A stretch of DNA of 64,000 bases. It comes from Oculina patagonica. Taxonomy: Eukaryota. The stretch covers positions 26,164,001 to 26,228,000 of the forward strand of contig NC_135762.1 of assembly GCF_052425735.1 (NCBI RefSeq), written 5' to 3'. Both the position numbers and the translations under genes were made by a program. Below the pieces are notes generated by a model that searched no databases, was not told the DNA's origin, and saw only the letters and a list, made by a program, of their open reading frames with translations. Position 1 is the first letter of the stretch; each line of letters starts with the position of its first letter. This document shows positions 4,478 to 49,802 of this stretch, piece by piece.

Positions 4478-5069
4478 AGGCCAAATAATCTATGCGTACA
4501 TGCCCCTCAAACTTGAAACAAACCTTTATAAACCGTGTATATAATTACTGTTGCCTAAAATAGTGCGCATGTAAAAGATTGTGGGATGAAAACATCTCGC
4601 CAACATCCAGGAATTGAAGGAACAGCCACCTCCTTGGCTTCCAGTATTATTATTATAACAGTGTGAAGACCAGAAAAAAAGTGATCACAAGCCAGTGGAA
4701 GTTTGATAAGATTGTACATGTACTGAACATAGCTGAAACACTGTTATTATATGTGCAATACATTACAGCGTACATGTGTATATACAGGTTTAGCCCAAAA
4801 TTTCAAGATGACATTGGACAAACCTAGTTACTGTAATGTTTGCATTTAATGAGCCTTACTCAAGTCAGTGATGTTCTAAATTCACTGTGCTTAATCTCGT
4901 AATTTATTTGAAATCACTCTTGAGAATAAAAGGTGGATCAAAACTTCTGCAGGCCCTGGGTCAGGTTGTTCAAAGGTGATTGACCTTAACCCAGGATTAA
5001 ATTTCCTTATCATGGGAGAACAACTAGGGCCTGTGTTCTATCCACACAGCCAACAACAAACACCTTTAA

Positions 5070-6938: not shown

Positions 6939-7880
6939 CTATTTTTGCCATTCTTTCCATTCCATTCCATCAGGAGGTTTACAATCTACATGCTTTTGTT
7001 TAACTTCATCCCAGTTAGTACTCAAGACTGTCCCGCCTGATTCAACAAACGATTTATTCATTGCTCTTCGCACTTCCTCGTTGCCATCACCATAAATCTG
7101 TTGAAATAATTGATTGAGAGCAGCTTCTCCTTCGAGTTTTTCATCCTTCTCATCCTTTGCAATTTGCGCCGCAACTTTATCCCAGTCTTTTCCAACATGT
7201 CGAGATGAAGGATATTTATACACAGGGTCATCTGAAGCTTTTGATTTTTCTGAAATAAAATAATCTTGGTATAAATCTTTATGTAAACAAATTCATTTTC
7301 ATTTACACTTTTACATGTATTGTAGCATGGTACTGAGTGTACATGTATCTTGTCTATGGGAGGTAGGATGATGTACATGAAACAACCCCACCACTGATCA
7401 TGTGATGTGCTGCCACGACCCCTAAGATTTGAAACAGAGTTGACTTTGTTAAAGGAGCTACGTCGCAGACAACACATTTTGAAAAAATCGGCAAAGTTTT
7501 TCAAATTTGTCGTTTCGAAATATTTATTAGTCGAAACCATTCTTGGTTATTTTCTCCTTTTTATCACTCCTTTGTTGTTTTTCTATGTTAGAAAACTATT
7601 ATTTTGAAGTTTTCTTCAATTTGAAAGGAATCAGAAAAAAATGACTTACTATTATACCATGACATTGCTCTTTTAATGATTTTCACTAAGGTCTTACTTC
7701 AGAGAACTTTTCACCTTGACGGACGCACTAGGCAAACTTTTAATCATAATTAGATGGTAATTATACTCTGCAGTTGTCGATGCACTAACCTTTTGTCGGA
7801 AATGGTTTTACAGCAATTTCATCAGCGGCTTCCAGTGATGACCACCTTATTCCTTCAGCTTTTTTCATCTTCAGTTCAAT
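6939..7880 (-). CDS. SUGT1: SUGT1 last two exons, duplicate/haplotype copy, cut 5' by the assembly gap
   Basis: Exons 7880-7790 ([17 protein letters not shown], end of CS domain) and 7249-6939 (SGS domain: [28 protein letters not shown]); ORF intact. Confidence 0.8.
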
Positions 7881-8533: not shown

Positions 8534-8962
8534 ATGACCAGTACTGTTAACAAAAAGTTCAAACTCTGCATTGCTGGCCTCGTAAATGTCCATATAAAAA
8601 GAATCAACTTCCACTTCTCTTGCTGGTCCTTCCCCGTCCACTGGAAGAAAGGGTTTATCAGTACCCATTGTAAATCGTCCACCTTTCACAAAAGCCATTT
8701 GATTCGTCCTTTTGAAAGGTGATTTCAATTTGATTTCGTCGTCTTTGTTTCCTCTGTTTAGTGACGTTGCTTCTTTATTTAAAGCATTATTTCGCTTTAA
8801 CGCAGAACATCCACAAGTTTTCTTGCTCTCAAAGTGAATAGAGTTCGAATTAAGTCCAGAATTGAATAAACGAATACTATAGCCAAAACTTGGGCAAGTT
8901 TCTTGACTGGTTAACACCAATGCAGCTCCCATTTGCAGCCATATTAAAAGTTCTATCCACAT
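8534..8962 (-). CDS. SUMF1: SUMF1 exon 1, duplicate/haplotype copy, cut by the gap
   Basis: ATG at 8962; same protein as 2202-1774 with 6 amino-acid differences. Confidence 0.8.
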
Positions 8963-9145
8963 GCTGCCAGTTGTAGGGATATATGAAACAAAAAAGAAAA
9001 GATTTGACAAATGTATAAAAGTTTTAGAACATAAACATTCTGTTTTGATCACATGCTTCTCAGAAGCTCTCGTGCTTGGTAACCGCGGTCGCTTATGAGC
9101 CGTCATTTTTTTGCAGCGGTATATGCCATATCTATAGAAAACAAA

Positions 9146-11236
9146 ATGGCGGCCAGAGTCGGAGTAAGTTGTCTTTATAGAATTTGAGCTTTTATCTTTA
9201 TCAAGCTCAATCTGCTGAACTTTTTTTACCTCCCAACTAGGATTTAAGAAACGCAATCGATCAAGCAACTCAAGCAGGCGAGGAATTTAGCAACGTTTAC
9301 TACGAAACATTCGACAAAAGACGACATGTGAGTTCGTTTTACACCATAAGAAATTCGAAACGTTGCGATTTTTTCCTTCTTTGTAGATAGCTAGGTCTTA
9401 TTTTTTCTCCGTCTGATCATATTTTGTTTGTAGCTCATGTCAAAATTGTATTCGGAGAACACGACAATAATATGGAATGGAAATCTAGTGAATGGTGGAT
9501 CAGCCAAAGTGACGGAATTCTTCAATGGCCTTCCTGCCACTGAACACACCCTTCATTCTCTCGACTGCCAGCCAGTATCAGGTATTTAGAAAAGAGAATA
9601 TATCTAAGAAACACTTCAGTCAAATATATCTTTCTTTGCGTGTTTCTGTTTTTGTCGTAGTTTACTAATGTACAGTAGATCGTTAAAAGCAGTGGTCTGG
9701 CATACATGTAGCTTGGACTTACATAATTAGCATCAATCAAGATAACATAATTAGCATATTTAGCATAATTTGGACTTTCATAATTACCGGTAGCATGTAA
9801 CACAGTGTAAAGGTAAAGCCTGCGTCAAGAAAAGTGGCCCATACCACTGGATCATCAGGGATTATCCTGGTTTCTGTAGCATACAATTAGGAGTATTTGC
9901 TAGTCTATTGCAGGGTTATTCCTCAGCATTTACATTAATGTGCCGGTACCCATTTATATTATACAGTACACCTGGCCCTGGTTGCTCAAATGATGGATAA
10001 CGCTATCCACCAGATACAAATTGTAAATCACTATCCGGTGGATAAGTGTAGCTTGTTTTGTCAGCTGGGCCCTTGGTGGAGAGGGGCATAGCATTATGCC
10101 CCTGAATTGGCACTTGAATCCACTTGTGCGCTTATGGCCACAACATCTCCCATTACATACTGTCTTGTGGTTCTTTATTAAATAATATCAATGCCAATGA
10201 TAACCTTAAATTTGAAGGTTATCCTTGGCATTGATATCCCTGCCTCCTTTACTTTTTTTTAATCAAGGAAAAGTTGAAATTCCAATCCTTATTATTACAG
10301 TCTATGAAATCTGATTTCTGAAACCCTCAGTTTCTCAAACCTCCCTGTAACTCGAACCAAAAGTTATTTTCCCTCGGATTTGCTTCACTAAGAAAACTGG
10401 GATTCCACTATAGTCTTGTGCGGGCAAAAAACAATATCTAATGCTTGATTTGCTCAGTTGTGTAATGTGAGGATTTCATTTAAGGAGAAGTTCACTTCAG
10501 AATGGCCATTTATTTTTTTTACGCCAATAAAAAGTTTATACAAAGATATGTTATTCACCAAAATTTCAGCCTCCTACGTGCACAATAACCCTACAAAATC
10601 TTTCTTAAAACTCGACAACTGAATGCCGCCATCTTGGAGCTGGTAATGTATGCGTGACATCAAAGAGCTCAGCCTGAAGTTTGGCGGGAAAATTTAAATA
10701 CTCAAAACTCCTTGTTTTTCTCGTAGTGACTTTTGTTTGTCAAAATGCCTGTTTGTGCATTTCCATGTTGCTCAAACAGAGCTCCAAGAAATACAGAAAA
10801 CAAGGAGTTTTGACTTTTAAAATTTCCCGCCAAACTTTAGGCTGAGCTCTTTGACGGCACGCATACATTACCAGCTCCAAGATGGCGGCGTTCAGTTGTC
10901 GAGTTTTGGGAAAGATTTCGTAGGGTTATAGCGCACGTTGGAGGCTGAAATTTTGGTGAATAACATATCTCTGTATAAACTTTTTATTGGCGTAAAGAAA
11001 ATAAATGGCCATTCTAGAGTGAGCTTCTCCTTTAAATATCAATTATATATATTCAATATCTATTTTGATCCTCAGATCAGGCAATTCCTGGACAGACTAC
11101 AGTTCTGGTGGTAACTGAAGGAACAGTCAAGTATGATGGCCACCAAGCAAAACAATTTTCTCAGAACTTTTTGTTGACTGCTGAGGGTGGAAAGGTGTGG
11201 AAGGTTGCAAGCGACTGCTTCAGATTTATCGGATGA
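9146..11236 (+). CDS. NXT1: NTF2-related export protein (NXT/p15), copy 2
   Basis: Exons 9146-9163, 9241-9327, 9434-9581, 11076-11236; coding sequence appears identical to copy 1. Confidence 0.9.
10480..11035. mobile_element. Kolobok-like fold-back MITE (copy of 3721-4276)
   Basis: Same sequence inside the duplicated block. Confidence 0.8.
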
Positions 11237-11828
11237 AGGCCAAATAATCTATGCGTACATGCCCCTCAAACTTGAAACAAACCTTTATAAACCGTGTATA
11301 TAATTACTGTTGCCTAAAATAGTGCGCATGTAAAAGATTGTGGGATGAAAACATCTCGCCAACATCCAGGAATTGAAGGAACAGCCACCTCCTTGGCTTC
11401 CAGTATTATTATTATAACAGTGTGAAGACCAGAAAAAAAGTGATCACAAGCCAGTGGAAGTTTGATAAGATTGTACATGTACTGAACATAGCTGAAACAC
11501 TGTTATTATATGTGCAATACATTACAGCGTACATGTGTATATACAGGTTTAGCCCAAAATTTCAAGATGACATTGGACAAACCTAGTTACTGTCATGTTT
11601 GCATTTAATGAGCCTTACTCAAGTCAGTGATGTTCTAAATTCACTGTGCTTAATCTCGTAATTTATTTGAAATCACTCTTGAGAATAAAAGGTGGATCAA
11701 AACTTCTGCAGGCCCTGGGTCAGGTTGTTCAAAGGTGATTGACCTTAACCCAGGATTAAATTTCCTTATCATGGGAGAACAACTAGGGCCTGTGTTCTAT
11801 CCACACAGCCAACAACAAACACCTTTAA

Positions 11829-12631
11829 AGTGTATATGACATGAAAAATATTTTCTGCTTATTTGAAAGGCCTTTCGAAATACAGAAGAATAGCGTTTTT
11901 CTTTTCGAAATATCTTTTTCGTTTTAGAGATATTGACGTTTTTGTATTATGCAAATTAGATCAGTGATGACGTCACAAGATTTGACTCAAAAAATGGTAA
12001 AATTCTGAATAAACAATATCTCTAAAACTATTGAAGCAGTGTTCTTGAAACTTGGCACCACAAATGTGCATCACAAAAGAAACAAAAATATTATTAATGT
12101 TACTCTTAGTATTGTTGCCATAGCAACTCTTTCAGCTCCAGTCTCTCTCTGTCAAAAAGACAAATATCCCCATATCTGACCTCTAAAGTGAGACAAAGGG
12201 TCCTGCTTAGAACAGACATAGTTCCCATATTGCCCAAATTCCCACCATTGGTTTGGCTGCACTAGATGGTTCTTGGTTTACGACAAAAACTGGGAATTTC
12301 AGTTTTTTATTGAGACAGCACCAGCGGCAAAACTGTTGTCATGGCAACAGCCCTAAGAGTATCATTTTGTTTCTTTTGTGATGCACATTTGTGGTGCCAA
12401 GTTTCAAGAACTCTGCTTTAATAGTTTTGGAGATATTGTTTATTCAGCATTTTACCATTTTTTAGAGTCAAATCTTGTGACGTCATCACTGATCTCATTT
12501 GCATAATACAAAAACGTCAATATCTCTAAAACGAAAAAGATATTTCGAAAAGAAAAACGCCATTCTTGAAACTTCTGTATTTCGAAAGGCCTTTCAAATA
12601 AGCAGAAAATATTTTTCATGTCATATACACT
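11829..12631. mobile_element. Kolobok-like fold-back MITE (copy of 5070-5872)
   Basis: Same TIRs and TTAA flanks. Confidence 0.85.
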
Positions 12632-13702
12632 TTAAATATCTAAACAAAGTGCACTTTACTTTTTGTTAGTAAGCTGGTTGTTGCAAATGCACTAATAATT
12701 TATTAACAAATGCCACTTTTCAAAATAATTTACATGTAACTCCATGTAGACAGTTCTGCACTATTTAAGCTGCAAAACACAGTAACTGGTTTACGGTAAG
12801 CACTTTTTAAAAAAAACATTTAGAACTGACTAAAATCATGTTCCTATTGAAAACTTCTATGGAGCCAAACAAATTTCTCCATCTGAATGCAAGTTCGAGA
12901 TTTATCTCTGCTAACCAGGCCAGCCCACTTATCTGGCTGGCTTGCCTCCATACAAAGAAGTTCTTTGTTTTTGTACAATTTTGTATCAGTCCTGGAATAG
13001 CTTTGCCCAGTCTAAAATGTCAGTTTGACTCCCAAGTCTCCTGTGTGTTATGACACCTTTTCAGAGATGATCAAGTGCTAATTCTCACAACTTGCCTGCT
13101 TGAAATTCTTGTAAAAAGGAACTGAGAAGTTGGAAATTAATCACTGTTGTGGACTAAGCTATTACTACGAAAATCACTAAACTGTGGAATAGGCCCAAAT
13201 GTTTTTGTAGCTGTCCCGCCCACTTTCCTCTGAAAATTCCAACCATCGCCTTGTGGCGTATAATTCACAGCTTGCTGATTACATCACGATGGTTGTTAAA
13301 TAAAGCCTCAAATAAACAGTCGGTAAAAGAGAAACTCAATAAAAGCTCGGTTAAACAAAGTGCTTGCAATTTTCCTTAAAAGGTCATGTCAAAATTTGGC
13401 ACTAATTTTATGTTTTGGTGCAAAAAAAAAAATTAAATTAAGCCGAGATTTTTTTTCAAGCACAGTTCAAACAAACGATCGTAAACAACAGTGTCAGCAA
13501 GGAGGCCCAGCACGTGAGCCACAGCAATTTCTGGAATTTGTCAACGAAAGTGGGTGGGGCAGCAATATAAAAATTCCTGCCCGTTCCACAGTTCGGTGAT
13601 TTTTGTAGTACAACAAAGCAACATTTCTTCTCTTGTCCTTATCACATTGTACACAACTACTTGTACTGTGACTCTGCGTAATTTTAGTCATCTCCAACCA
13701 GT

Positions 13703-27940: not shown

Positions 27941-28954
27941 TCACGTCATGTTCAATTCTGCCATTGAAATCGCAACTTTCCTTCTTCTAAACAAGGAACA
28001 GCGCACAGTTTTTAACAGTTGTATAATTTCCCCTCTCACCTCCCTGTTAAAAGCGCCATAGAGTATTGGGCTCACTGCGGCCGTGCTGCCGACCACAATG
28101 CTGTAAAGCACATACACAAGGCGCGGCGCGAAATATTGTCCACAAAACACTCCCATTAGATCAATGACGTAAAATGGAGTCCAAGAAAATGTGTATGCAA
28201 ACACCATAGCAAACAATATTTTCGTGATTCTTATATCCCTGGCGGATATTCTGTTACCGCTGGCTAGTCCTGTCTCGGGACGCCTTAGTTGTGCGTTGTG
28301 CAGTTTCACTTTTTGGTAAATCTTGAAATACGAAAATGAGATGACGATGTATGGAAATTGAATATTGAAGAAACCAGTTAGAAATGCGTGGACCAGATTC
28401 AACTTTTCCACATCGAAAATACAGATTCCCTTGCCAGAATGGAACTCAAAACTGTTTCCAAGAAGGACGTATGACAAAGGAAAATTTGCCGCCAAGATCC
28501 ACGACACAGCAATCGATATGTAAACGTTCCTTCTTGTAAAGTATCTCCGATGAAGGTTCGATTTGACCATGAGGAAGTATCGATTTATCGCTATTAAAGC
28601 CATGGCATAAATAGACCCGGTCGCTAGCATAGCTGTTGCAAAACCTACAAATTGGCAAGACCCATCACCAAATGTCCATTTTCCAGTGATAATCACGTTT
28701 GGAAGAAAAATCAATACGCAAAAAGATATTATCAACTCCAAGGCGCATAAAGAAACGATGAAATAGTTAGAGACAGTTCTAAGTGACGGAGTTTTGAATA
28801 TTGCCAACGATACCAGGAAGTTGCCAGCCAGTCCGATCAGACCCACTAGAAGTACCACAGTGAATTCTATAAAGATCTCGGCTTTGCTTCTTGTTGCTAG
28901 CTGTAAAGCGAATTCTTCAGTCAAGTTCTGCTGAGTTTTATCACCCTTGCACAT
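27941..28954 (-). CDS. Class A GPCR, melatonin-receptor-like, paralog A (337 aa)
   Basis: Seven TM segments; GN in TM1, AINRY, W4.50, SWTP, SPILY; intronless CDS. Confidence 0.92.
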   Translation of the reverse strand: MCKGDKTQQNLTEEFALQLATRSKAEIFIEFTVVLLVGLIGLAGNFLVSLAIFKTPSLRTVSNYFIVSLCALELIISFCVLIFLPNVIITGKWTFGDGSCQFVGFATAMLATGSIYAMALIAINRYFLMVKSNLHRRYFTRRNVYISIAVSWILAANFPLSYVLLGNSFEFHSGKGICIFDVEKLNLVHAFLTGFFNIQFPYIVISFSYFKIYQKVKLHNAQLRRPETGLASGNRISARDIRITKILFAMVFAYTFSWTPFYVIDLMGVFCGQYFAPRLVYVLYSIVVGSTAAVSPILYGAFNREVRGEIIQLLKTVRCSLFRRRKVAISMAELNMT

Positions 28955-29401
28955 TTTAATTTGTTTCTCCTCCTGTATTTTAACGCGATCTGTTTGAAAA
29001 AAACAAAGTAAAGGTATAAGATTACTGCAAGTGACAAAATAACTTGAATTGCTTTTAAAATTTTACAACAAAACACAAAACAAGGCCAATATTGAAAACC
29101 ACAAATTGTTGGTTCTTTCATAAAAATGAAAAAGCCTGGTAAAATTAAAGGCTTTTTACCTAACAAGTATTCTTGCATAAAGGGGTGCCGTTATCTAATC
29201 TCTTTCACATTTTTTTGGTTAGTAGTCATCACCAAAAGCGTAGTTTGGTCACCTTTGACAAAAAAAGCTCTCTGGGAACGACTGATCATCCATCAAAAGT
29301 TTGTCGTGTTTTGCGCAAGCTCTGTTGTGCGACTGTTTGAATGTAATTTGTTTTATCGCAAACGGTGGCCTATAAATTATAATCCTGATATAGCTAATAC
29401 C

Positions 29402-32837: not shown

Positions 32838-34227
32838 AGGTCTTTCCACAAGTTGCTCGAGATTTCCCCCCAAAAGTTGCCCGTAATTTCTCAAAAAGTT
32901 GCTCAAAAGTTGCTCCAAAAATCCAAAAAAGTTGCTTCTGATAATAAAAGTTGCTCGAAAGTTGGTCCAAAAAATCCAAAACGCTGCTTCTAATCACGAG
33001 AATTTCTCTAAATATATGCTAGTTTCTATTTGAGAGTAAGATTTCCAAGCAGTTTTATGCAATTTTACAGCAAAACAAGTATCTAAATAACAAATTAAGG
33101 GAAAAAATTTTAATTAAGGTCGCGCGGGACCCTTGCTCATTAATAAATTCATTAGCCAAATTTCTTGACGGAGTGCTATCTTGTAAAGCTTTAATTCACT
33201 ACATTTTGAACATTGATTCCTCTAAAATTTAACAAGGATATTCGGAGATGATGGAATTATATCATGATTGTCCTTATACTGAGAGGTGATCGTTGTCTGT
33301 GATGTTACAAGCCCTTAAAAGTTTAACTGCAGATAATGCGATTTTGTGTCCAAGTTTTCAGCTAGCACAGCGCACCGAATTAAATGATTATATAGCCTAG
33401 TGATAAATCATAACCCCTTTTGTGCTATGGCTGGAACGAAATTTTCGATTTCAAAAACTGCTACAAGTTAATGGCTTCTAAGAGAGCAAAAATGTGAAAT
33501 CTAAACTTTGAAACGTGCTATCTTCATTTTGAGAAGGAAATTTAAAAATTCGCTCTAGTCATAGCACAATAGAGTACATCAAGTTTATGTTCCCCGCGAA
33601 TCAACTCTTGAAATTCTATGTCGGCGGAGAAAACTTGGACACAAAATTGCAGGTTTAGAGGCTTCCGAAGACCTTCCGAATCAATGTTTACAACAACGTG
33701 TGATATAATTATTCAAAGCTGTGAATCTAATTATGATAATTCCCTATGTTCCAGCGCACGTGGCACAAAGCTGAGAACAATTACTAGTAATTACTTGTAC
33801 AAAAGAGTTTAAAAACAAACATTCTCATGAATATTTCGTTTGTTGTCGGCTTCAGTCGTCCGGCAGTTCGTGCATACTCTTTAAATAAATACATACTAAT
33901 GACTGCAAGGGTCCTGCGCGACCTTAACAAGGATTTCTTTAACTGAGAAAAATCGTGAAGATATCAATGACGTCATGTTTGCTGACGAGTTTTGTAATGT
34001 TTTAATGCAAAATGAGCCGAAAGTTGAAATGTCTTCAGAGGTTCCTCGAAAGTCTTCGGCAAACTTCGTAAATCTTCGGAAACGTTCGTATTGCCTTTGA
34101 ACAACACTCGGATAATCTTCGGAGATCTTTGGTCTGGAAATTGCTCAAAATGCAAGTTGCTCGAGAGGAAAAAAGTTGCTCGAAGGGGAAAAAGTTGCTC
34201 GAGAGGAAAAAAGTTGCTCGAAGGGGA
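32838..34227. mobile_element. AAAAGTTGCTC-repeat element, truncated; same family as 54592-55100
   Basis: Colinear with 54592-55060 and interrupted by the element at 33118-33923. Confidence 0.75.
33118..33923. mobile_element. Kolobok-like non-autonomous element
   Basis: TTAA-GGTCGCGCGGGACCCTTGC..GCAAGGGTCCTGCGCGACC-TTAA. Confidence 0.8.
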
Positions 34228-36772
34228 CATACGCAGCTTGGATTTACGCCATGATGAACTACCAGCACAACGTTCTCTAGGAGTCTTTTGGGATTTGGAG
34301 AGAGACGTATTTACGTACAAGGTATCGACGCCTGACAGACCCTTCACCCGTCGCGGAGTCTTATCACTGGTGAACTCAATCTATGACTCTTTGGGTCTAG
34401 CTGCGCCGGTCTTGTTGGAGGGCAGATTACTTCTTCAAGAGCTAGTAGCCATGGGCAAGAATACGACTGCCACTGCACCTCTAGGCTGGGATGACCCACT
34501 TCCAGAGGGTCCTGCGAACAGATGGAGGAGCTGGAGAGATGCTCTCCCAGACTTGGAGAAAGTCCATGTGCGACGATGTTATCACCCGAGAGAATTCGGA
34601 CCAATCACCAGAGCCGAAATCCATGCATTCTCAGATGCAAGTCAGCGAGCAATTGGAGTAGCCGTTTACCTCCGCCTGTTCAACGCCAGGCAGGAAGTGG
34701 CCGTATCCCTCGTATTTGGCCAGGCGAAGGTAGCGCCTATCAACCCCGTGAGCATTCCACGTCTCGAACTCTGTGGTGCCGTACTGGCAGCTCAAGCCGA
34801 AGACAAAGTTGCAAAGGAGTTAGATATGGCAGTATCGGAAGTGGTGTTCTACACCGACTCGAGGGTTGTCCTCGGTTATATTCGCAACGAAAGCAGAAGG
34901 TTCTATGTCTACGTTGCAAACCGCGTAGAGATCATACGCAAGATATCTAGCCCAGACCAGTGGAGGTACGTGGAAAGCAGCAACAACCCCGCTAACCTGG
35001 CGACACGCGGCCTACAGGCGAAAGACCTGACAGAATCGGGTTGGCTTAGCGGACCCGCCTTTTTAAGAAACGCGAAAGGCATCGCCCCAGTACTCGACGC
35101 CAATCACGTTTCCATTAGCGCAGATGATCCAGAGGTACGCAAGGAGGTCAAGACCTGTGTAACTAAACGACAGGAATCCGGTACACTTCACAAAGGAGTT
35201 TTCGAGACGTTTTCGTCCTGGCAATCACTCAGGCGCGCCATTGCAGTCCTTATTGCCAAAGTTAGGCGATTCAAGCGGAGGAACAAAGCAGACATAGCAT
35301 CTCAACGTGAGCCAGACCAGCGATTGTCACCAGAAGTAGTAACCCAGGCCACTAATATCATTATTAAGGCAGTCCAGCACGAAGGCTTTAAGGATGATCT
35401 TCGCACCCTAACAGAATCTGCAGCACAGAGTGGAGATGACCGTAACGGTGTTAAAGAAAGAAAAAGGTCACTGAAGAAATCCCATCTCTATCGACTGGAC
35501 CCCTACGTTGCCGACGCCGGAGTATCGAGAGTTGGCGGTCGTCTCCGCCAGACTAACCTCAGTTCAAAGGAGAAGCATCCAGTACTTCTACCAAAGGGAC
35601 ACCATGTTTCAAAGCTGCTGCTACGTCACTACCACGAAGAAGTCCATCATCAAGGCCGGCAAATCACCCATGGAGCCCTTAGGAACGCTGGATACTGGCT
35701 GGTGGGCGGCCATGGAGCCGTTGCAAGTCTAATTGGTTCCTGCGTGACATGTAGGAAACTCCGAGGTTCTATGCTAGAGCAGCGCATGGCAGACCTGCCA
35801 CCGGATAGAGCAGAGCCTGGACCACCTTTCACAAATGTAGGGTTCGATGTGTTTGGGCCATGGACGGTGCAGACCAGGCTAGGAGAGCACGAGGAGGAGT
35901 CGCAAACGCAAAGCGCTGGGGTCTTGTCTTTACATGCTTGGCCAGTAGAGCGATCCACATCGAGTTGTTAGAGACAATGGACGCCAGTTTATTTCTCTGT
36001 GCCCTAAGGCGTTTCCTTGCCATACGGGGACCTGCATTACGCCTGAGATGCGACAGGGGGACCAACTTCGTCGGCGCAAAGACGGAGGTTGATGAAGCCT
36101 TAGCGAACATGGAAACGGAGTCTATTGCTAAGTATCTTTCAGACCAAGGTTGCGAGTGGTTATTCAATCCCCCCCCCCCCCCCCATGCATCCCACTTTGG
36201 CGGCGCTTGGGAGCGTCAGGCGCATTCTAGATGCCATGCTGTTGGAGCTAGGGACAAGACAACTGACCCACGAGCTGTTGAATACCTTAATGTCAGAGGT
36301 TGCAGCGATAGTGAACGCCCGACCAATCACAGCCATACCGTCGGACGTCGACGAACCTCAACCATTGACACCAGCAATGTTGCTCACGCAAAAATCGCGC
36401 CCACTCGGCCCCCTTCCTGGAAGCTTCACGGCACAGGACCTCTACGCCAGACGACGGTGGAGAAGGATCCAATACCTTGCAGATCAGTTTTGGACCAGAT
36501 GGAGGCGGGAGTACGTCCACAACCTGCAAGCTAGGACAAAGTGGAACCAGGAGCGTCGGAATTTAACGGACGGAGACATCGTGACGATGAAGGACGATCA
36601 AGCCCATCGGAATAACTGGCCTCTCGGCAAGGTGGTGGGTGCAGTCAAAGACAAAGACGGGAGAGTGAGGAAGGCAGCAGTGATGGTCTACAGAGACGGA
36701 CAGAAGAAGGTGTACGAGCGACCAATCAGTAACCTCGTGCTGTTAGTTGCCTCTGACGATCCGTTCGCTTAA
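34228..36772 (+). pseudogene. Frameshifted BEL/Pao pol (RT end, RNase H, integrase, DUF5641-like tail)
   Basis: SLGVFWD, TRRGVLS, HAFSDAS, SIPRLELCGA, YTDS, VANRV, RVGGRL, HH-CC zinc finger, GFDVFGP, CDRGTNFVGA, FGGAWER, WPLGKV, ERPISNLVLL; spread over three frames with shifts near 35880 and 36170-36220. Confidence 0.9.
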
Positions 36773-37921: not shown

Positions 37922-38932
37922 TCAGGTCATGTTAAATTCTGCCATAGTAGTTGCAACTTTTCGTCGTCTGAACAAAGAACAGCGCAGAGTTAACAGTTGT
38001 ATAATTTCCCCTCTCACCTCCCTGTTAAAAGCGCCATAGAGTATTGGGCTCACTGCGGCCGTGCTTCCGACCACAATGCTGTAAAGCACATACACAAGGC
38101 GCGGCGCGAAATATTGTCCACAAAAAACTCCCATGAGATCAATGACATAGAATGGAGTCCAAGATAGCGTGTATGCAAACACCATAGCAAAGAGTATTTT
38201 CGTGATTCTTATATCCCTGGCGGATATTCTGTTACCGCTGGCTAGTCCTGTCTCGGGGCGCCTCAGTTGCGCGTTATGTATTTTCACTTTTTGGTAAATT
38301 TTGAAATACGAAAATGAGATGACGATGTATGGAAGTTGAATATTGAAGAAACCAGTTGGAATTGCGTGAACCAGATTCAACTTTTCCACATCGAAAATAC
38401 AGATTCCCTTGCCGGAATGGAACTCAAAACTGTTTCCAAGAAGGACGTATGACAAAGGAAAATTTGCCGCCAAGATCCACGACACAGCGATCGATATGTA
38501 AACGTTCCTTCTTGTAAAGTATCTCCGATGAAGGTTCGATTTGACCATGAGGAAGTATCGATTTATCGCTATTAAAGCCATGGCATAAATAGACCCGGTC
38601 GCTAGCATAGCCGTTGCAAAACCTACAAATTGGCAAGACTCGTCACCAAATGTCCATTTTCCAGTGATAACCACGTTTGGAAGAAAAATCAATACGCAAA
38701 AAGATATTATCAACTCGAAGGCGCATAAAGAAACGATGAAATAGTTAGAGACAGTTCTAAGCGAAGGAGTTTTGGATATGGCCAACGATACCAGGAAGTT
38801 GCCAGCCAGTCCGATCAGACCCACTAGAAGTACCACAGTGAATTCTATAAAGATCTCGGCTTTGCTTCTTGTTGCTAGTTGTAAAGCGAATTCTTCAGTC
38901 AAGTTCTGCTGAGTTTTATCACCCTTGCACAT
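37922..38932 (-). CDS. Class A GPCR, melatonin-receptor-like, paralog B (336 aa)
   Basis: Intact ORF closely similar to paralog A; AINRY, SPILY. Confidence 0.92.
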   Translation of the reverse strand: MCKGDKTQQNLTEEFALQLATRSKAEIFIEFTVVLLVGLIGLAGNFLVSLAISKTPSLRTVSNYFIVSLCAFELIISFCVLIFLPNVVITGKWTFGDESCQFVGFATAMLATGSIYAMALIAINRYFLMVKSNLHRRYFTRRNVYISIAVSWILAANFPLSYVLLGNSFEFHSGKGICIFDVEKLNLVHAIPTGFFNIQLPYIVISFSYFKIYQKVKIHNAQLRRPETGLASGNRISARDIRITKILFAMVFAYTLSWTPFYVIDLMGVFCGQYFAPRLVYVLYSIVVGSTAAVSPILYGAFNREVRGEIIQLLTLRCSLFRRRKVATTMAEFNMT

Positions 38933-39030
38933 TTTAATTTGTTTCTCCTCCTGTATTTTAACGCGATCTGTTTGAAAAAAGCAAAGTAAAGGTATAAGAT
39001 TACTGTAAGTGACAAAATAACTTGAATTGC

Positions 39031-40125
39031 TGTAGGAGCATATTTTGGGATTATTTTAAAAATATATTTCTTAATACGCGCTCGAGCGTTAAGATTATTT
39101 ATTTATCTGCGGAAAACAAGAATTTCAATTATGAGTCAAGTGTGAGCTCGCGTTTGAACTAGGTGAGAACTGACTCACGTCGCAGATTGCTTTAAGATTA
39201 TCCTTCAGCTTTATCTACTTTTCCGTAGCTACTGAATGGTTGCTCATAAATGTAGCTTGTTAAAAGGAATCCTTGTTTCGACCTTTTACTTCATCTTTAA
39301 CTTTAAAAATAATTTCGGTTAACCGCTACTGTACACTTTAAGACTTAGGAAACACGAACACTTAGCTTTAGAAAAGATATTTATCAAGCTTAAAATCTGC
39401 TTTCTATTGTAGCTTATTGTAAAACTTATTGCTTTCCGCAAGAGGTGTTTTCAGCGGCGATAATGCAAGATAACTAATTTTGCCGAAACGAACTATTTGA
39501 TTAAGTTGCGGAATCGTTCGCACTTTTACAGCTCAACCTCGCATATTGATAAGTTCTACAGTTCTCATTAAAAACTAAATTCGCTCGCAAGAGTTTACAC
39601 CTTCGAGTTTTCGTGTTCGCAGGTGATTTGCTTTTTGCTGAATTTCATATAGATTTTCGTTAGTAAACTAAAATATTTTAACAACACTAGCTTCGTTGAG
39701 TTACTAGCTTTCGATCTAGCCGATTGTTTTTCTGTAAGGAATTTTAGTTCCTAAGATATTTCTTACTTTGCAAAAATTTTCACTAACAAAGGAAACATTA
39801 CATCATTTCGGTTTCCTTTGCTCTCGGAAGTTAGAACATCTGAAAACACCTTACTTTCGCATATGAATAGCACGGAAACTTGTGAAAAGTAATTTATTTT
39901 AGTATTTTCCTTTAAATAGAGCTGCCTTGTAGCTCTCGATGATTCATAATCAGTAACAATCAGAGTCATAACCAGAGATGTAATAAGAAACAACACACGA
40001 CGAATGACTCTGGACACTCTCAACTACGCTAAAGTGAGAACTTGTAGCAGAAGTACAACCCAGAATTAAACGCTGTTAACCGAAGACCTTTGGCTCTTTC
40101 ATCTTACTTAATCTGTCCCGCTACA
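39031..40125 (+). repeat. 5' LTR
   Basis: TGTAGG..CTACA; I could see only 3 differences from the 3' LTR. Confidence 0.95.
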
Positions 40126-40662
40126 GATCTGGTTGGAGAACTCCGCGGTAGACGACCTCCGGTACCTCCCGCAACGAGCAATCCTCCTCTCGACTACAAG
40201 CACATCAGCAGAACGTCAAGAAAATCGTACAACAACAATAAAAGATGGTTAGTACCTTTCCCGAAACGAAACTGCAGGATGCTGTGAGTACAAAACTGAA
40301 CTGTGTAATCATGGTATAGAAAATTCAAGCCAGAAAAAAAAAACTTAAAAAAAAAATAGAAAAAATAAGACAGTATAGATTTTGTTTCGTTAAGTAGTAC
40401 TACCTTTTCTGCCAAATGTTCAAGTCATAGCGTGCGTTTAGCGAGATTAATTAATAACAGAATGCCTACGAAGTTTCATATGATGTTGTTTCAATGCTCT
40501 TTTCAACGCCTGCATGCCTGTTTAGTTATCTTTATTTCTTTTCTATTTTCGTCTTTTCTTTCGAGTACCAAACTGTTTTTCAAACAAAAATCCGAAATCG
40601 CTTACGCAAGCTGTTAAGTAGTCAAGGAACATTTCGGCTAAGAATTGTTAGATTCGGAAAGC

Positions 40663-42432
40663 ATGGCCGTGAGTTACGAAGAGTTCGAATTAGATGGTAT
40701 TCCGATACCTTATTTTTCCGGTGACTCGGACGAAGATGTCAAACAATTTTTGTGGCAGTTTAATGGGGTTACAAATTTTTATCAGTTTTCCGACGCACAG
40801 AAAGCCGAGCTGTTACCGTTATTGTTAACAGGGAATGCGAAAGTATGGAGAAATTCAATTGCTGATTTAGACACAATGACTTTCGAACAGCTTTGCAAAG
40901 CGCTCGTTGAACAGTTTCATACAGAAGCAGATATTTTGCTGTTGGAGCAGAAGCTTTCAAATAGGAAACAGCTACCTGGTGAAACTGTAGTGCAGTTTGC
41001 ATGTGAGATTCGAAAGCTCTGTCTGCGCCTGGATATATCAAATGATCGGACTATGAGGCTTTATTTTGTAAACGGCCTGCGACCAGAATTAAAACGTTAT
41101 GTCTTTCTACAGCAACCAAAAACCTTTTCAGAGGCAGAATCACTCGCCAGATTAAAAGAGGCGCTACCCGAAGAAAGGCCAGTAGACAGTACAATTGAAA
41201 TTCTTAGGGCAATCGCACAATTACCGCAAAATGCTACAGGCATCCAATCAGAAGTAACAGCTTATGATCCAACACCTTACAATAACAGCAATGATAATAG
41301 AGGACCAATTTTTCAGAATGATAAACCCCTCGGCAGGGAAGAGGTTGGTCAAATAGTTGCTCAGGAGATACACAATATACAAGAAGAGAGTATTCAAAAT
41401 TACAGAAGCATAAAAACTTTTAATAACAGGCTGATTTGTAATTATTGTGGGAAACAAGGTCATGTTTCTTCTGTCTGTTGGAAACGTCAATATGACGAGC
41501 AAAGTAGCTATTCCAGAACTAGGCCATCTCAAAACAGGCAATACGACACAAACACAAGGCGCTCGCATCCAGTAGAACGGCACAGGCGCAAGGAAAGGGT
41601 AAACGTGAAAATAACACCAACTCGGCACATGTTGTCCAATCATACAAAACTAGAAAATTTAGATAAAAATGTGTCAAGTGAAACTGAACAAAAGATCGTT
41701 GACTTAAATGCTTCCATCGAGGAAGAGAAAAACATTTTGCTTGTGGACAAAGAGAGAAAAACTTGTTCTAGTACGACTACAGACAATAATATTGAGGCAA
41801 ATATAACAAACAATGAACAAATGAATGGCGAAAAAGGCTCCTTTCATCATGAAGTTGAAATTGTGGAAAAGATTAAATCAGAAAACTCAGACACATTTAA
41901 GCTTATAGACGATGAACAAAAGGAAATCTGGTTTCTAGAGAATAATGAAATAAATGAAATAGAGATATCAAAGGAAAATTTTTCAGAAGATTCAGCAGAT
42001 CATGATGAAGTCGAAGCTAACTTAAAAGAGAGCCATGAAGATTACATACAAATTGAAGAACAGACATTAGATTTCGTAGTGGTACACCCTCTGCAAGTTC
42101 AGATTTACGAAACGAGCCAAATCCTATATGAAGACCATGAAGTTTATTGTCGACAAATATCACTAGAGACAGCAGACACAGGAAAAAATGAATTTATTAC
42201 AGAAGGCAACAGTAATCGCAGTATTCAGCAAATTGGTGCCAAAGATGTTTTGTCTCACGATGTAAAAGGATTAACGTCGTTATGCCTAAATTCCTTGAAA
42301 TTCATTCATTTCTTTATTTTCTTCATGTTAAAATTCATGAAGGTGTTTCCACCACCTTACACATTCAGGATACCCCGAAAACGGAAACCACCTGATAAAT
42401 TTTATTCAGCTGACTTCTCAGTTTGGGCTTAA
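40663..42432 (+). CDS. gag: Retrotransposon Gag with CCHC knuckle and extended acidic/hydrophobic tail (589 aa)
   Basis: ATG at 40663. IPYFSGDSDEDVKQFL, LLTGNAKVW, RKQLPGETVVQF, FVNGLRPEL, PKTFSEA, CNYCGKQGHVSSVC. Confidence 0.88.
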   Translation: MAVSYEEFELDGIPIPYFSGDSDEDVKQFLWQFNGVTNFYQFSDAQKAELLPLLLTGNAKVWRNSIADLDTMTFEQLCKALVEQFHTEADILLLEQKLSNRKQLPGETVVQFACEIRKLCLRLDISNDRTMRLYFVNGLRPELKRYVFLQQPKTFSEAESLARLKEALPEERPVDSTIEILRAIAQLPQNATGIQSEVTAYDPTPYNNSNDNRGPIFQNDKPLGREEVGQIVAQEIHNIQEESIQNYRSIKTFNNRLICNYCGKQGHVSSVCWKRQYDEQSSYSRTRPSQNRQYDTNTRRSHPVERHRRKERVNVKITPTRHMLSNHTKLENLDKNVSSETEQKIVDLNASIEEEKNILLVDKERKTCSSTTTDNNIEANITNNEQMNGEKGSFHHEVEIVEKIKSENSDTFKLIDDEQKEIWFLENNEINEIEISKENFSEDSADHDEVEANLKESHEDYIQIEEQTLDFVVVHPLQVQIYETSQILYEDHEVYCRQISLETADTGKNEFITEGNSNRSIQQIGAKDVLSHDVKGLTSLCLNSLKFIHFFIFFMLKFMKVFPPPYTFRIPRKRKPPDKFYSADFSVWA

Positions 42433-43406
42433 AGACTTGTTTGAATGTCTCCAGGGTGTTTGCTTACTCGAAAGAAATAACGAAGGCAACAGATACACTC
42501 TCGGAAATTTTTCAGGCTTGAATCGTGGCCCGAATTGACGAGACAGAGCATCAGGATAAGCATCATGATAATATGACTTAGCATTCTTATGATGCATGAT
42601 ATGATCATGATGACATTTTCCAATATAAGTTTTTCGTATTTTAAAATTATTTAGTGAAAGTAGTTACCTTCAGTCTAGCTAGTTCTATAAACACTCAACT
42701 GGCTTGATTTTCTCATAACCTTGATATTAAACTCACTTTACCGCCACGGATGTCAACCAAGTAGACTCACACCCTCTCAAGCTAACAAGAACAAGACGCG
42801 CACATTCCCTACGCCACACAGTGGAACACTTAGTGAACTGAGTTCAGCTCATTATCTAGGGGCAAACAAATCATTGGCACAAGACGCACAAAAGACACAA
42901 ATCATGATGGAAAAACGCATACGATGGTGAGGCTCTATGATTCCTAGCCTCTTGACGCACATTTGTCTCAAACAGCACTCTTGAAGCGTAACGTTATTGA
43001 TTTGAGGAAACAACAAGCTTCTCCAAGAAACACGAAGAAGCACTGCAGAGCAATACAAGTGACAATAGTTTTCGCAACTAGAAATTTCTTCACATCCATG
43101 AAAACAAGCTTGTCGACATTGAAAGTGCGAAAACAGTGCCTGTCTGCCTGAATCAGAGCGACCAGCCACTAATTTTGAGGTGTGCATCAATCATCATTGG
43201 AGCCATAATGAAGAATCTCATGGACTATCAAGTGAACAAGAACCTTCCAGCTGAACTTTGTAACACTTAACTTTTACTACCTTCAACTAAATTATTGTAT
43301 TAATGATCATTTATTTATTATTCACTATGTGGTAGTTTAGACGTAATCGTATGTTTTTGATTATTTTAGTCGCCGGGAGGCGACTTACTTAAAAAGGGGA
43401 ATAATA

Positions 43407-44501
43407 TGTAGGAGCATATTTTGGGATTATTTTAAAAATATATTTCTTAATACGGGCTTGAGCGTTAAGATTATTTATTTATCTGCGGAAAACAAGAATT
43501 TCAATTATGAGTCAAGTGTGAGCTCGCGTTTGAACTAGGTGAGAACTGACTCACGTCGCAGATTGCTTTAAGATTATCCTTCAGCTTTATCTACTTTTCC
43601 GTAGCTACTGAATGGTTGCTCATAAATGTAGCTTGTTAAAAGGAATCCTTGTTTCGACCTTTTACTTCATCTTTAACTTTAAAAATAATTTCGGTTAACC
43701 GCTACTGTACACTTTAAGACTTAGGAAACACGAACACTTAGCTTTAGAAAAGATATTTATCAAGCTTAAAATCTGCTTTCTATTGTAGCTTATTGTAAAA
43801 CTTATTGCTTTCCGCAAGAGGTGTTTTCAGCGGCGATAATGCAAGATAACTAATTTTGCCGAAACGAACTATTTGATTAAGTTGCGGAATCGTTCGCACT
43901 TTTACAGCTCAACCTCGCATATTGATAAGTTCTACAGTTCTCATTAAAAACTAAATTCGCTCGCAAGAGTTTACACCTTCGAGTTTTCGTGTTCGCAGGT
44001 GATTTGCTTTTTGCTGAATTTCATATAGATTTTCGTTAGTAAACTAAAATATTTTAACAACACTAGCTTCGTTGAGTTACTAGCTTTCGATCTAGCCGAT
44101 TGTTTTTCTGTAAGGAATTTTAGTTCCTAAGATATTTCTTACTTTGCAAAAATTTTCACTAACAAAGGAAACATTACATCATTTCGGTTTCCTTTGCTCT
44201 CGGAAGTTAGAACATCTGAAAACACCTTACTTTCGCATATGAATAGCACGGAAACTTGTGAAAAGTAATTTATTTTAGTATTTTCCTTTAAATAGAGCTG
44301 CCTTGTAGCTCTCGATGATTCATAATCAGTAACAATCAGAGTCATAACCAGAGATGTAATAAGAAACAACACACGACGAATGACTCTGGACACTTTCAAC
44401 TACGCTAAAGTGAGAACTTGTAGCAGAAGTACAACCCAGAATTAAACGCTGTTAACCGAAGACCTTTGGCTCTTTCATCTTACTTAATCTGTCCCGCTAC
44501 A
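43407..44501 (+). repeat. 3' LTR
   Basis: Follows the PPT, ends CTACA, then the TSD. Confidence 0.95.
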
Positions 44502-47500
44502 TTGCTTTTAAAATTTTACAACAAAACACAAAACAAGGCCAATATTGAAAACCACAAATTGTTGGTTCTTTCATAAAAATGAAAAAGCCTGGTAAAATTA
44601 AAGGCTTTTTTACCTAACAAGTATTCTTGATTAAAGGGGTGCCGTTATCCAATCTCTTTCACATTTTTTTTGGTTAGTAGTCATCACCAAAAGCCGAGTA
44701 GGTTGGTCACCTTTGACAAAAAAAGCTCTCTGAGAACGACTGATCATCCATCAAAAGTTTGTCGCGTTTTGCGCAAACTCTGTTTTGCGACTGTTTGAAT
44801 GTAATTTGTTTTTTCGCAAAAGGTGGCCTATAAATTATAATCCTGATATAGCTAATACCTAGTTGGTCGGTTGTATAGTTGCAACTGAATACGGTATGAA
44901 AGCGAGGCAAATTTTTCTTTGTATTGTCCCTCGCTTTCATGCTGCATTCGCTTCATTACGCACCAAATGTGGAAAGTCCCGGCCTGATGTGGGAAGTCGA
45001 TATCCGAGTCTTAATTTCTTCCTTGTAGCGTAATGGCATACACCAGGAGCCAATTGTTCGATATTGGAAGCGTTTCTCAAGCACCGCATAATGTCTTGGC
45101 ATAATCAATTCATAATCAATTTAAATTCTCTTTGTCGATAAGCTTTCCCTCTGATAAAGGTGGCTCTGCTCGATTGTTTTGACTGCCGCGAACGCATTAA
45201 GAACATGCTCTTATCATGGTTTTGGCCGGCGCTTGCTTTTAGAATTTGTTTTGTATTTTTAAACTGTTTTAATAAAAACATGTTAGTATGGCGGATATCT
45301 TAGCGGAAGAGTTACAGAATACGTGTATAAAAAATGAACTAATGATGACAACGCATACGCTCTGCATTTTAAATAGTATTTTCTAAATTTGCTCCTTTAC
45401 GATAGATTTGCAAAATTGGCTTCGCAATATTGTACTTATTTCAAATTTTGGAACCCTCTTACGCTATCAAGTTAGGCTACGAAAACGATGAAGTGGCTCC
45501 TAAATTTAGCAAAAAAGTAGGTTGTCACCATTACAGAAAATAAAGTTTGGAAATTTTCTCCCTCTTTTTACGATCAACTTAATTAAGTAAACGAGAAGAC
45601 TAAAATATGAAAATTATTCATAATCAACTACAACCAGAAAAGGACAGTTATACTGACTCTGAAATTATATACATGCCTTACTTGTGTGCTAATCAAGACG
45701 GAACGAATTTTTTAAAAAAAATGTTTTAAATACGTTTCTCGCTGGGACGTCAGTGTTTCAGTGATTCTCAATTTTTCAAATAATTATCCTCTCCCCTATA
45801 ACGCAGTCAAGGTGACAAAGATAGTCAAAAGCCTTTTCTAGTTCGCAGTTGAAAGCGTTAATTCAAAGTCACTTGCAAATTGATTTCTTTTATCAAATGA
45901 ATGACGAAATTTTGAAATGTTGTTTACGTTGTTGTTTGACCACCTTTCATGTTACGGAAAGTCAAAATCATGCATGCTCTATCGTAAGTTAACCCCTAAT
46001 ACAGAACCCCTTTTATTAGAGACTTAGGTTTGTTTTTGGTTCCAGTTCAGTCTAAACAGAAGCCATTATAGTAATCAGAATAGGCTTATCCCCAATAAGA
46101 GTTAAATCCTGGTCCAAAGAGTGTTTGTTTTAAGCAAAATTCCGTCGCCTTTCTAATTGATTTTTTCCACTAAAGCACCATATAGAATTAATTAAAAAGC
46201 ATATAAAATCAGGCTTGAGTTCTACGCTCCAAATTATTCTATATACGCACGTTTGCATTGAGTCCGATCAGAAGAATTTCTCATGATTTATTAGAGTACG
46301 GGATAATTCAAAATGGTCCAAAATATATTCTGCCATCTCAAGTTGACATGCAGACCCGTTTTCCGGGATCGGAGGGCTTTGTCATTCCAAAAATTGCAAG
46401 CTTAATCTTGATCTATTTTGATGTTTCAATTTTAAGATCATCACTTAAAACCATTTTACTTACCTTATCCTATTTCGCCTTCCGAAAATCCTTGTCGATT
46501 TCAGACGCGTGCTTTAATCAGTGAAATATATCCAAAGTGAATCGAACGCGTCCTCGCATTCAGCGTATTTAAAACTACTTGAATTGTATTTCTCCTCTGT
46601 ACCTCCGTTTCTCGGGGCCTCATTAATTTTTGATCATTGAAAAGCTCAACAAATTTTAATTACGTGCTATAATCGTTTGACGTCGTAGTGATGCCTTGAA
46701 CCAAAATAAAAATGATTAATTCGTAGTCCACTCTGCTTTCAAACACCTGTCACGAACGGCTATTATATTACATGACTGTTGCTAGCTTGACCAAATTAAA
46801 ATGACAGTTAACAATGGTAATCAGAAAAGAAAAAAAAGAAGAAATCAGAAACGGATTTAAACGCCATGTACATGTCACTGAGCGATCCTTCTCTGGACAA
46901 CACAACGATACAATTTTAAAACAAACCGATCCTTCAAAGAAATTGTTGCTCTTTCTACTTTTCGTTTTGTTAATATCGTCATTTATAATTTAATATTACT
47001 CATTGAGCAAAACCAGTGGGGCTTATGAAAATAATAAATTTGTTGAATCTATATTTTGTGTTGTTTACACACCATACCTTGTGTTGTGCTTTATAAAATG
47101 AAAAGGAGTACTTTGAATACATTCTTTAAAATGTTAATTTTTTTACAGTTTTCGTGAAATCTTTGTGTTTATCCATTATTCCGTCTAAATATTTTTTGGA
47201 AATTACATGTAACGTCCGCATACTGATCTATACTGGTCTGTGATAATTTTATAATTTTGTGCTAGACCACTGACAGCCGAATCTTAAGTCTTGGCCAATT
47301 TCAACCCTTACAATGCCATCATTTGTACGTTGGCAACTGAAAAGCATTTGGCTTGAAATGAGAATCAAATTGGTGATGAGAGTTTGACTTGAGAAACAAA
47401 CTGTTCTTTTTTGTTAACATTTAGTTGACGTCTTTAAGCTGGCCTTTTCACTGTTTACCCAATCAGAAATTGAGTCTGAGAGGCGGAGCTGACAGGAGTA

Positions 47501-48359: not shown

Positions 48360-49385
48360 TTATTTTTCTTTATTGTCTTGTATTGCGTTTTTCCTGTTTA
48401 TAACATGTACTCTAATTGGTGGCACTACTCGATTTGAATTATTCCCACCAATTTTACCAAGAATCCTTTTAAATTCGGTTTTAAAGTCACGATTGAAAAA
48501 TGCATACACGATTGGATTCGCAGCGCTGTTAACACCGACCATATAGGAATAGAGCTGGTAAATTTGACGAGGGAAAATGTACTGGCCAGTAAACATTTCT
48601 GTGGTGTCAACAACTAACAGAGGAAGCCAACAAAATACATAAACAACCACAACGGCGAATAAAAGTTTAGTTACGTTCAAATCTTTTGCTGAAATCCTTG
48701 GAGAATTGTCTTGTCTGTGATTCAGATTTGCATTGTGATTCCGAATCGTTCGAAAAATTCTAAAATAACTGAAAGCGATTGTATTGAAGGTAAAGATCGC
48801 AAATGTTATGTTTACAGCAAGTCCTTCCGCAAGACTCACTTGATCGAGGTCGTAAATACAGCAAAATTTGCCAGGATGATAGCTGAAGACTCCCTTCACT
48901 AGAAAATAAACCGGCCAGGCCAAAGCGATCAGCCAGGCAAGTAGCAAAGACATCAAGACGGGCTTCACTTTAAAATAAGCTCTGTACTGGTTGGGGCGCA
49001 CAACTTTAAAATAACGATTTACAGAAGTTAATGTCAGGATCAGAATCGATGCTGATCCAAGAGTTGTCGCCGTGTAACCGTGATACGCACATGAGACTTC
49101 GTTGAAAGGCCAGCGGCCCGCGATCAAGACGCTAAGAGACAGCGGCATTACAAGAATTGACATGAGCAGATCTGTCAGTGCTAAGGCCGTGACGTAGTAG
49201 TTTGGCGTAGTGCGCAGTCGCGGATTGCACTTTACTGCCCATAGAACCAAAGAGTTGCCTAGAAACGCGGTCAGCATGACGAAAACCAGTGGAAAGCTTT
49301 CCAGCGCGGTTCGTAGGGGTCCTCTTTGAGCAATAACGAGCGCCATTCGTAAGGCCTCATTTCTGTTACCATCGTGATTAAGCAT
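48360..49385 (-). CDS. Class A GPCR, melatonin-receptor-like, paralog C (about 341 aa)
   Basis: Likely ATG at 49385 (MLNHDGN), which aligns with the A/B N-terminus; GN, LALTD, SVNRY, CWLP, NPIVY; YHPGKFCC parallels FHSGKGIC in A/B. Confidence 0.9.
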   Translation of the reverse strand: MLNHDGNRNEALRMALVIAQRGPLRTALESFPLVFVMLTAFLGNSLVLWAVKCNPRLRTTPNYYVTALALTDLLMSILVMPLSLSVLIAGRWPFNEVSCAYHGYTATTLGSASILILTLTSVNRYFKVVRPNQYRAYFKVKPVLMSLLLAWLIALAWPVYFLVKGVFSYHPGKFCCIYDLDQVSLAEGLAVNITFAIFTFNTIAFSYFRIFRTIRNHNANLNHRQDNSPRISAKDLNVTKLLFAVVVVYVFCWLPLLVVDTTEMFTGQYIFPRQIYQLYSYMVGVNSAANPIVYAFFNRDFKTEFKRILGKIGGNNSNRVVPPIRVHVINRKNAIQDNKEK

Positions 49386-49802
49386 TGTGCTGTTGGTTTT
49401 TTTGTTGTTCGCTGTTGGAGTACTTTTGGACTGTGGAGCTATAAAGAAGAGGGTCACGTGATTAATAGCAGGCTGTTTGACTATCAGCATTCCATCGTAA
49501 GAAAAAAGATGGCGGCTGTACATTTTACCACAATACCTTGCGAACCTAACATAGCCAATAGGAACATGGAAAGCCACATTTTTTCCCGAAATTTGTCCCT
49601 GAACTAACAACAATGCGTATGCCAGGTTTGAAGATTTTAGAACTTATGTGTGCGTTGTTATAAGCGTTTTAGGTTTTTAGTGCGCTAAAAATTATGGGTA
49701 AATGTACCAGTCGCCATCTTTTTGCCTGCAGTGGATTAAATTTGCATTTTTAATTAGAGCTTACCGATTTTTGCATACGTTTACAGCTTAGTACGCCGGT
49801 AC

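Follow-up and report, generated by a model that had tools for sequence, protein, structure and literature searches.

The ERV-L related MaLRs of mammals are long terminal repeat (LTR) elements with a gag-derived open reading frame (ORF) and no pol. Gag-only LTR elements have been described from plants as TR-GAGs, which measure less than 4 kb according to the abstract and were sought with a filter of 1-6 kb (PMC4350172), and from animals as the zebrafish BHIKHARI elements Bik-1 and Bik-2 and the chicken ENS-1, which lack pol and env (PMC12067270), with non-autonomous Troyka as a further animal example (PMC12440569). How enzyme-less LTR elements that encode their own Gag obtain the enzymes of a helper is a question common to TR-GAGs and BHIKHARI. 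Here we analyse a 64,000-nucleotide stretch of the Oculina patagonica genome (NC_135762.1, positions 26,164,001-26,228,000, forward strand; hereafter the window), in which positions 39031-44501 are occupied by a young gag-only LTR retrotransposon. We find that this element belongs to a family with purifying selection on both the capsid and the tail of its Gag, that the tail is, judging by shared sequence blocks, the leader of a lost Pol, and that it ends in a short motif which marks enzyme-less elements only among the loci examined. We consider it probable that this Gypsy family replicates via a chromodomain, env-bearing helper, with the C-terminal peptide of its Gag serving as a docking signal.

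Like TR-GAGs, the element combines LTRs, a primer-binding site (PBS), a polypurine tract (PPT), a target site duplication (TSD), a single ORF with a Retrotrans_gag domain and zinc knuckle, the lack of reverse transcriptase (RT), and several recent copies (PMC4350172). It differs in its length of 5471 bp, which is above 4 kb yet within the 1-6 kb filter, and in having a coral rather than a plant host. The accessible text on TR-GAGs describes no selected Pol-leader tail or shared terminal motif; the C-terminus of TR-GAG1 is faintly protease-like (PMC4350172). With Bik-1, Bik-2 and ENS-1 the element shares an animal host, recent activity, a gag-only structure and a partner not found in the reference genome, yet these are described as endogenous retroviruses rather than Gypsy elements, and no such tail or motif appears in the accessible part of that account (PMC12067270). 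The Gag of Bik-1 is membrane associated, via an N-terminal coiled coil (PMC12067270). A preliminary description of this DNA, made from the sequence alone, had proposed an animal equivalent of the plant TR-GAGs; this holds for a gag-only element in an animal but not for a first such element in animals, where they are already described (PMC12067270). What is new here is the terminal peptide shared by enzyme-less lineages. We found no account of the motif, of a retained Pol leader or of such coral elements in the literature, in a search that left Repbase (a possible catalogue) and most subscription journals outside its reach.

The element is a recent, integrase-type insertion. Its two LTRs, of 1095 bp each with TG..CA ends, differ by three substitutions, and TTGC flanks the element at each end as a 4-bp TSD. 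Within the window, a paralogous G protein-coupled receptor (GPCR) gene carries just one TTGC at the corresponding position (29049-29052), which represents the empty site of the insertion. The element lies antisense to a GPCR exon, approximately 60 bp upstream of its likely splice acceptor, and the frame of this exon is intact; the element is probably hosted by a GPCR intron. The PBS corresponds to tRNA-Ala, which family copy L031 matches at 18 of 18 bases, while the window copy carries three single-base insertions; a tRNA-Ala PBS is also found in 5 of 13 anthozoan errantivirus entries (PMC13524379). The interior consists of one 589-amino-acid (aa) Gag ORF with a Ty3-type capsid and CCHC knuckle, and we detected no protease, RT, RNase H or integrase in it. 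The LTRs, TSD, PBS-like site, PPT and single intact ORF free of enzyme motifs are as first described. Structure prediction with AlphaFold returned a confident capsid fold, with dArc capsids as the best Foldseek matches, and a low-confidence, mostly unstructured tail. The residues after the knuckle number 317, not about 250 as initially reported, and the tail is better described as acidic and of low complexity than as mostly Glu/Asn (53 of 205 residues across aa 331-535).

Searches of a single 529-Mb assembly (G000), for which all counts are lower bounds, recovered four further open full-length ORFs (L031, L032 and two in L040; 670, 670, 676 and 796 codons from stop to stop), one frameshifted copy (L033), and fragments and solo LTRs. 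LTR pairs within the family differ at 3, 2 and 5 sites. Five solo LTRs and three full insertions are flanked by 4-bp TSDs, and one solo LTR (L012) has a 6-bp repeat in place of the TSD. Other assemblies encode proteins of like architecture (P0001, P0002), and the named homologues of the family are stony-coral proteins. We conclude that this is a gag-only family, and not a one-off deletion of a gag-pol element. Two tandem family copies with a common middle LTR (L040-L041) are 99.98% identical. In other assemblies, a cluster of seven members around P0002 encodes an in-frame Gag-tail protein that lacks the CCHC knuckle while keeping the terminal motif, and P0046 represents a second in-frame fusion of Gag and leader.

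A codon model run on four ORFs, with L033 and the fragments left out, put the nonsynonymous to synonymous rate ratio (omega) of the capsid at 0.38 (p = 1e-6). For the tail as a whole it was 0.53 (p = 0.002), and for a tail block at aa 456-530 it was 0.23 (p = 0.003). Purifying selection, as expected in the preliminary description, is therefore observed in both capsid and tail. Indels within the ORF are multiples of three in 5 of 6 pairwise alignments, with the frame kept across differences of up to 594 bp, whereas those in the 3' non-coding region are mostly not multiples of three.

In related elements, Gag is succeeded by an ORF2 in the -1 frame, in which a long acidic leader precedes the protease. 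From its sequence resemblance, the tail of the family Gag is this pre-protease leader, left from a lost Pol and joined to Gag in frame. When compared with 300 shuffles, a profile of the tail block for which we used solely RT-less proteins scored 28 bits on the Pol leader of the RT-bearing L057 (shuffle maximum 5.4) and 14 on that of L043; it was not clearly above shuffles on the leaders of L046, L049, L050 and L053. A second short block, AVRS.Q, is common to the longer tails (L032, P0001) and the leaders of the RT-bearing L043, L046, L049 and L057. The whole-tail profile yielded a significant match to ORF2 of the RT-less L044, and it is because of the two common blocks and such intermediate proteins that we assign the tail to the Pol leader. 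The preliminary description had set against its own proposal a tail that was frameshifted pol or evolved neutrally. The letter of the first of these holds, given that the tail appears Pol-derived, although it is in frame and not neutral.

The last conserved residues of the Gag tail form a motif with the consensus xPPYx(Y/F)xxPxxRKPPD, to which the basic end noted from the outset (RIPRKRKPPDK) belongs. A tight pattern of this motif matched 11 places in the genome against none in a control, and protein queries found 15 and 8 places. Among 68 loci, the motif is present in 19 and RT or RNase H in 12, with both in none, and the RT-bearing loci score at or below 0 bits for the motif. Elements with the motif fall into five lineages: the family itself; L044, L045 and L058; L042 and L055; L070-L073, L075, L077 and L098; and L074 and L076. 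Their Gags are as little as approximately 30% identical, and a Gag tree (36 rows, LG+G4, with long branches present) rejects a single clade for the 16 motif rows (p of the approximately unbiased test, 9e-68). Codon variation within the motif affects third positions in 15 of 16 columns, first positions in 8 and second positions in 6; since changes fall mainly at third positions, the motif is conserved as protein. A search of 1.84 billion representative proteins returned 20 matches, of which 19 carry the motif and one is spurious, and no protease, RT or integrase domain was found in these matches. A second protein search gave 27 matches of up to 2000 aa, with Gag as the only Pfam domain or none. 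The motif ends 2-25 residues before the C-terminus in 35 of 37 proteins, with fixed spacing and a near-invariant KPPD end. PPxY or LPxY is present in 12 of 28 distinct motif cores, the window family fitting (P/L)PxY. Of the 11 proteins where T takes the first place, 8 have an upstream LP(S/T)YEEA, a second motif of the LPxY type.

Elements of the other motif lineages include young RT-less families (L044, L045, L070-L077) with Gag and an intact -1-frame ORF2 that ends in the motif. In lineage D, ORF2 has an omega of 0.56 (p = 2e-7) and contains LP(S/T)YEEA. L055 is a mosaic: as far as the protease it matches RT-bearing copies at 87-98% identity, the next 68 bp are 94% identical to the window family, and older env remnants (71-77%) lie 3' of this segment; the motif of its lineage thus sits at a Pol-deletion junction. 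This structure points to transfer of the motif by recombination. Two other accounts of the motif were rejected. The basic end is not the C-terminus of a helper integrase, as the integrases of helpers terminate in a chromodomain and score no higher than 0 bits, nor does the motif appear to be an RNA structure, given the concentration of changes at third positions and no common fold in 11 copies.

The Ty3-type capsid, the CCHC knuckle and relatives with the order protease, RT, RNase H, integrase (L043, L046, L049, L057) place the family within Ty3/Gypsy by sequence, and its ancestry is Gypsy rather than retroviral, because the nearest RT-bearing relatives are chromodomain Gypsy elements. The likely helper is a lineage of chromodomain Gypsy elements that carries an env-like ORF and has its PPT/LTR junction in common with the family. 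A pattern of this junction had 10 matches in the genome and none in a control, comprising six family copies, one small element and three L057-type copies with env or SGNH remnants. L057 itself contains gag, protease, RT, RNase H, integrase, chromodomain, SGNH and env-like pieces, and helpers carry SH3-like and chromo domains, their integrase being of the chromodomain type. The primer tRNA is a further cis signal in common with this lineage, the PBS of L043 starting with TGGTGGA. Faint env remnants are found in the window element (78% over 45 bp to the L057 env region, E = 3e-4) and in copy L032 (67% over 98 bp, E = 2e-5). An env-like ORF in L050, 41% identical to that of L057, is predicted to fold like paramyxovirus F (low-confidence model, mean pLDDT 42); a sequence search of the env alignment against solved structures gave nothing below E = 0.07. 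Cnidarian chromodomain errantiviruses with F-type env (PMC13524379) are the likely helper class, which the chromodomain integrase and the paramyxovirus-F-like env of L050 fit. Those elements are gag-pol-env, unlike the gag-only family, and the word 'non-autonomous' is absent from the main text of their description (PMC13524379). With no pol and just a faint env remnant, the window element is not itself an autonomous errantivirus-like element. The picture anticipated at the outset, of a replicating gag-only family that would depend on a Gypsy partner, is supported by the further open ORFs, solo LTRs, homologues and shared PPT/LTR junction.

A search for the helper through LTR matches failed, as the flanks examined belonged to solo LTRs, to truncated copies or to a zinc-finger gene of the host. 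A PBS pattern of 12 bases taken from the window copy was uninformative (56 matches against 62 in the control). The small element that shares the PPT/LTR junction (L037, 565-3720) is 3.2 kb long, with 1-kb LTRs and no Gag match. An SGNH/GDSL hydrolase ORF lies between the integrase and the env-like ORF in L046 (7577-8119) and L057 (7315-7770); GDSL ORF3s are known in rotifer elements. L083 and L084 are single open frames of approximately 2700-3000 codons that begin in gag, cross pol and reach an env-like region.

Under the reading that we consider probable, the Gag-tail protein would co-assemble with helper Gag-Pol in mixed particles, and element RNA would be packaged together with the helper enzymes. 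Helper RT would prime on tRNA-Ala and the shared PPT and copy the element RNA, and helper integrase would insert the product. The C-terminal peptide would likely be a docking signal that gives element Gag access to particle assembly, and template switching in mixed particles might move it between lineages. More generally, and only as a tentative proposal, a mobile peptide cassette of 15 residues may replace the enzymes at the end of Gag-Pol and recombine between coral Gypsy/errantivirus-like lineages, making each Gag to which it is joined a satellite of helper particles. Several observations weigh against these proposals. An intact helper with the family PPT was not found in the assembly, although a single assembly need not contain an active one: L057, L043, L049, L094 and L095 are all broken, so that the expected autonomous partner is represented by shared PPT/LTR junctions and not by an intact copy. 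Among RT-bearing copies, the closest Gag shares approximately 47% identity with that of the family, which, with only broken helpers, makes compatibility for co-assembly a tentative assumption. The 68 loci are not independent, having been chosen for similarity to Gag or the motif, and are cut to 10 kb, in some RT-bearing cases before the 3' end is reached. In L042 and L055 the motif does not share the frame of the upstream ORF, 16 of 28 motif cores are neither PPxY nor LPxY, and seven RT-less loci lack the motif (L078-L081, L082, L085, L088), indicating that it is not required for RT-less life. The whole-tail profile was not significant against RT-bearing leaders, which leaves two short blocks and the intermediate proteins as the basis for homology of tail and leader, and aa 531-589 alone, which include the motif, have an omega (0.50, p = 0.19) not significantly below 1. 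Expression is low, with 20, 36 and 10 polyA reads of approximately 3 million each, mostly LTR and assignable at family level only; contigs of a set (X1) whose RNA nature is a guess also span the element and are not counted as expression. The seven loci without the motif are themselves young RT-less families, some with protease, and have hydrophobic segments at their ORF2 ends.

PPxY/LPxY-type motifs bind the WW domains of NEDD4, and the favoured partner of the motif, on the resemblance of its core, is a host WW-domain (NEDD4-type) ligase of a budding or sorting pathway, an identification that is possible rather than probable. Ranked after it, and unlikely, is a nascent-chain arrest peptide, whereby the ribosome would pause at the basic, proline-rich end and tether Gag to its own mRNA for cis packaging in helper particles. 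Peptides that contain PP and polybasic peptides slow ribosomes, the near-terminal placement, fixed spacing and KPPD end of the motif would suit this role, and independence of the helper lineage fits exchange between lineages. However, a C-terminal placement is equally expected of a cassette that precedes non-coding DNA, and the protein search is biased to ORFs with the motif in frame. Third in rank, and doubtful, is direct binding of the motif to a helper Pol domain (protease, RT, integrase or its chromodomain, e.g. via the invariant lysine), drawing enzymes into particles of diverged Gag. Such a contact would be needed by RT-less elements only, and the divergence of the family Gag from its nearest RT-bearing counterpart and the SH3-like and chromo domains of helpers agree with it, but the same motif is found in lineages with different likely helpers and is missing from RT-less lineages that lie close to other chromodomain helpers.

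We disfavour, as the least probable account of the motif, the view that tail and motif are a passenger remnant of the Pol deletion, kept open only through fusion to a needed Gag, with the motif as the decayed end of an older ORF. The spacer, like aa 531-589, has an omega (0.65) not significantly below 1, its length differs by up to approximately 200 codons between copies, and P0002 dispenses with the knuckle. Against this stand the strong constraint on aa 456-530 and the retention of the motif with synonymous changes across lineages of approximately 30% Gag identity; furthermore, a stop after the knuckle would discard a useless tail, yet four diverged ORFs retain it. Were the motif a mere passenger, the finding would reduce to an ordinary non-autonomous Gypsy family. 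Also improbable, although ahead of the passenger view, is the initial suggestion of an element-specific membrane anchor in the hydrophobic stretch. A helix is predicted at aa 531-559, Kyte-Doolittle peaks are 1.58-1.91 among family members, and similar segments occur in L044 and P0046. But the peak of the window copy, 1.58 over 19 residues, includes four charged or polar residues and compares with 2.72 for a GPCR helix, the predicted helix has a pLDDT of approximately 49, the value for P0002 is 1.22, and lineages D and E have no such segment. The Pol leaders of the RT-bearing L046 (2.21) and L050 (2.77) contain stronger segments, which makes the stretch at most an inherited feature. A short protein-level motif that is found across five lineages and other coral assemblies, and is absent from enzyme-coding relatives, offers a small, testable handle on how enzyme-less elements reach helper enzymes. 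The motif may also be used as an annotation marker for non-autonomous coral LTR families, some of which now stand in annotations as hypothetical genes of the host.

Table 1 Features of the gag-only element and its insertion site, in window coordinates
Feature	Position	Strand	Remarks
Left TSD, TTGC	39027..39030	+	single copy at paralogous empty site 29049-29052
5' LTR	39031..40125	+	
Primer-binding site, tRNA-Ala	40130..40150	+	three single-base insertions in window copy
Single ORF, 589 aa	40663..42432	+	Gag in frame with putative Pol-leader-derived tail
Capsid domain	40738..41163	+	aa 26-167; omega 0.38 across aa 1-175
CCHC zinc knuckle	41437..41478	+	aa 259-272
Acidic low-complexity spacer	41503..42027	+	copies differ in length through in-frame indels; omega (0.65) not significantly <1
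Conserved block	42028..42252	+	homologous to pre-protease Pol leader of RT-bearing L057/L043; omega 0.23
Hydrophobic predicted helix	42280..42336	+	aa 540-558; marginal as membrane span
C-terminal motif	42349..42396	+	aa 563-578; common to five RT-less lineages
Faint remnant of helper env-like gene	42685..42742	+	3' non-coding region
Polypurine tract and LTR junction	43391..43406	+	common to L057-type env-bearing elements
3' LTR	43407..44501	+	
Right TSD, TTGC	44502..44505	+	
Host rhodopsin-family GPCR coding exon	37922..38932	-	frame intact

Elsewhere in the window, rhodopsin-family GPCR paralogues are arranged in tandem, all on the minus strand (27944-29062, 37922-39055 and 48363-49643), the first of which supplies the empty insertion site. 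A fragment of a BEL/Pao retrotransposon with Peptidase_A17, rve and DUF5641 domains lies at 34028-36769. Finally, a 5.5-kb duplication (1774-7290 and 8534-14057; 98% identical) flanks a gap of 500 Ns and may be an effect of assembly.

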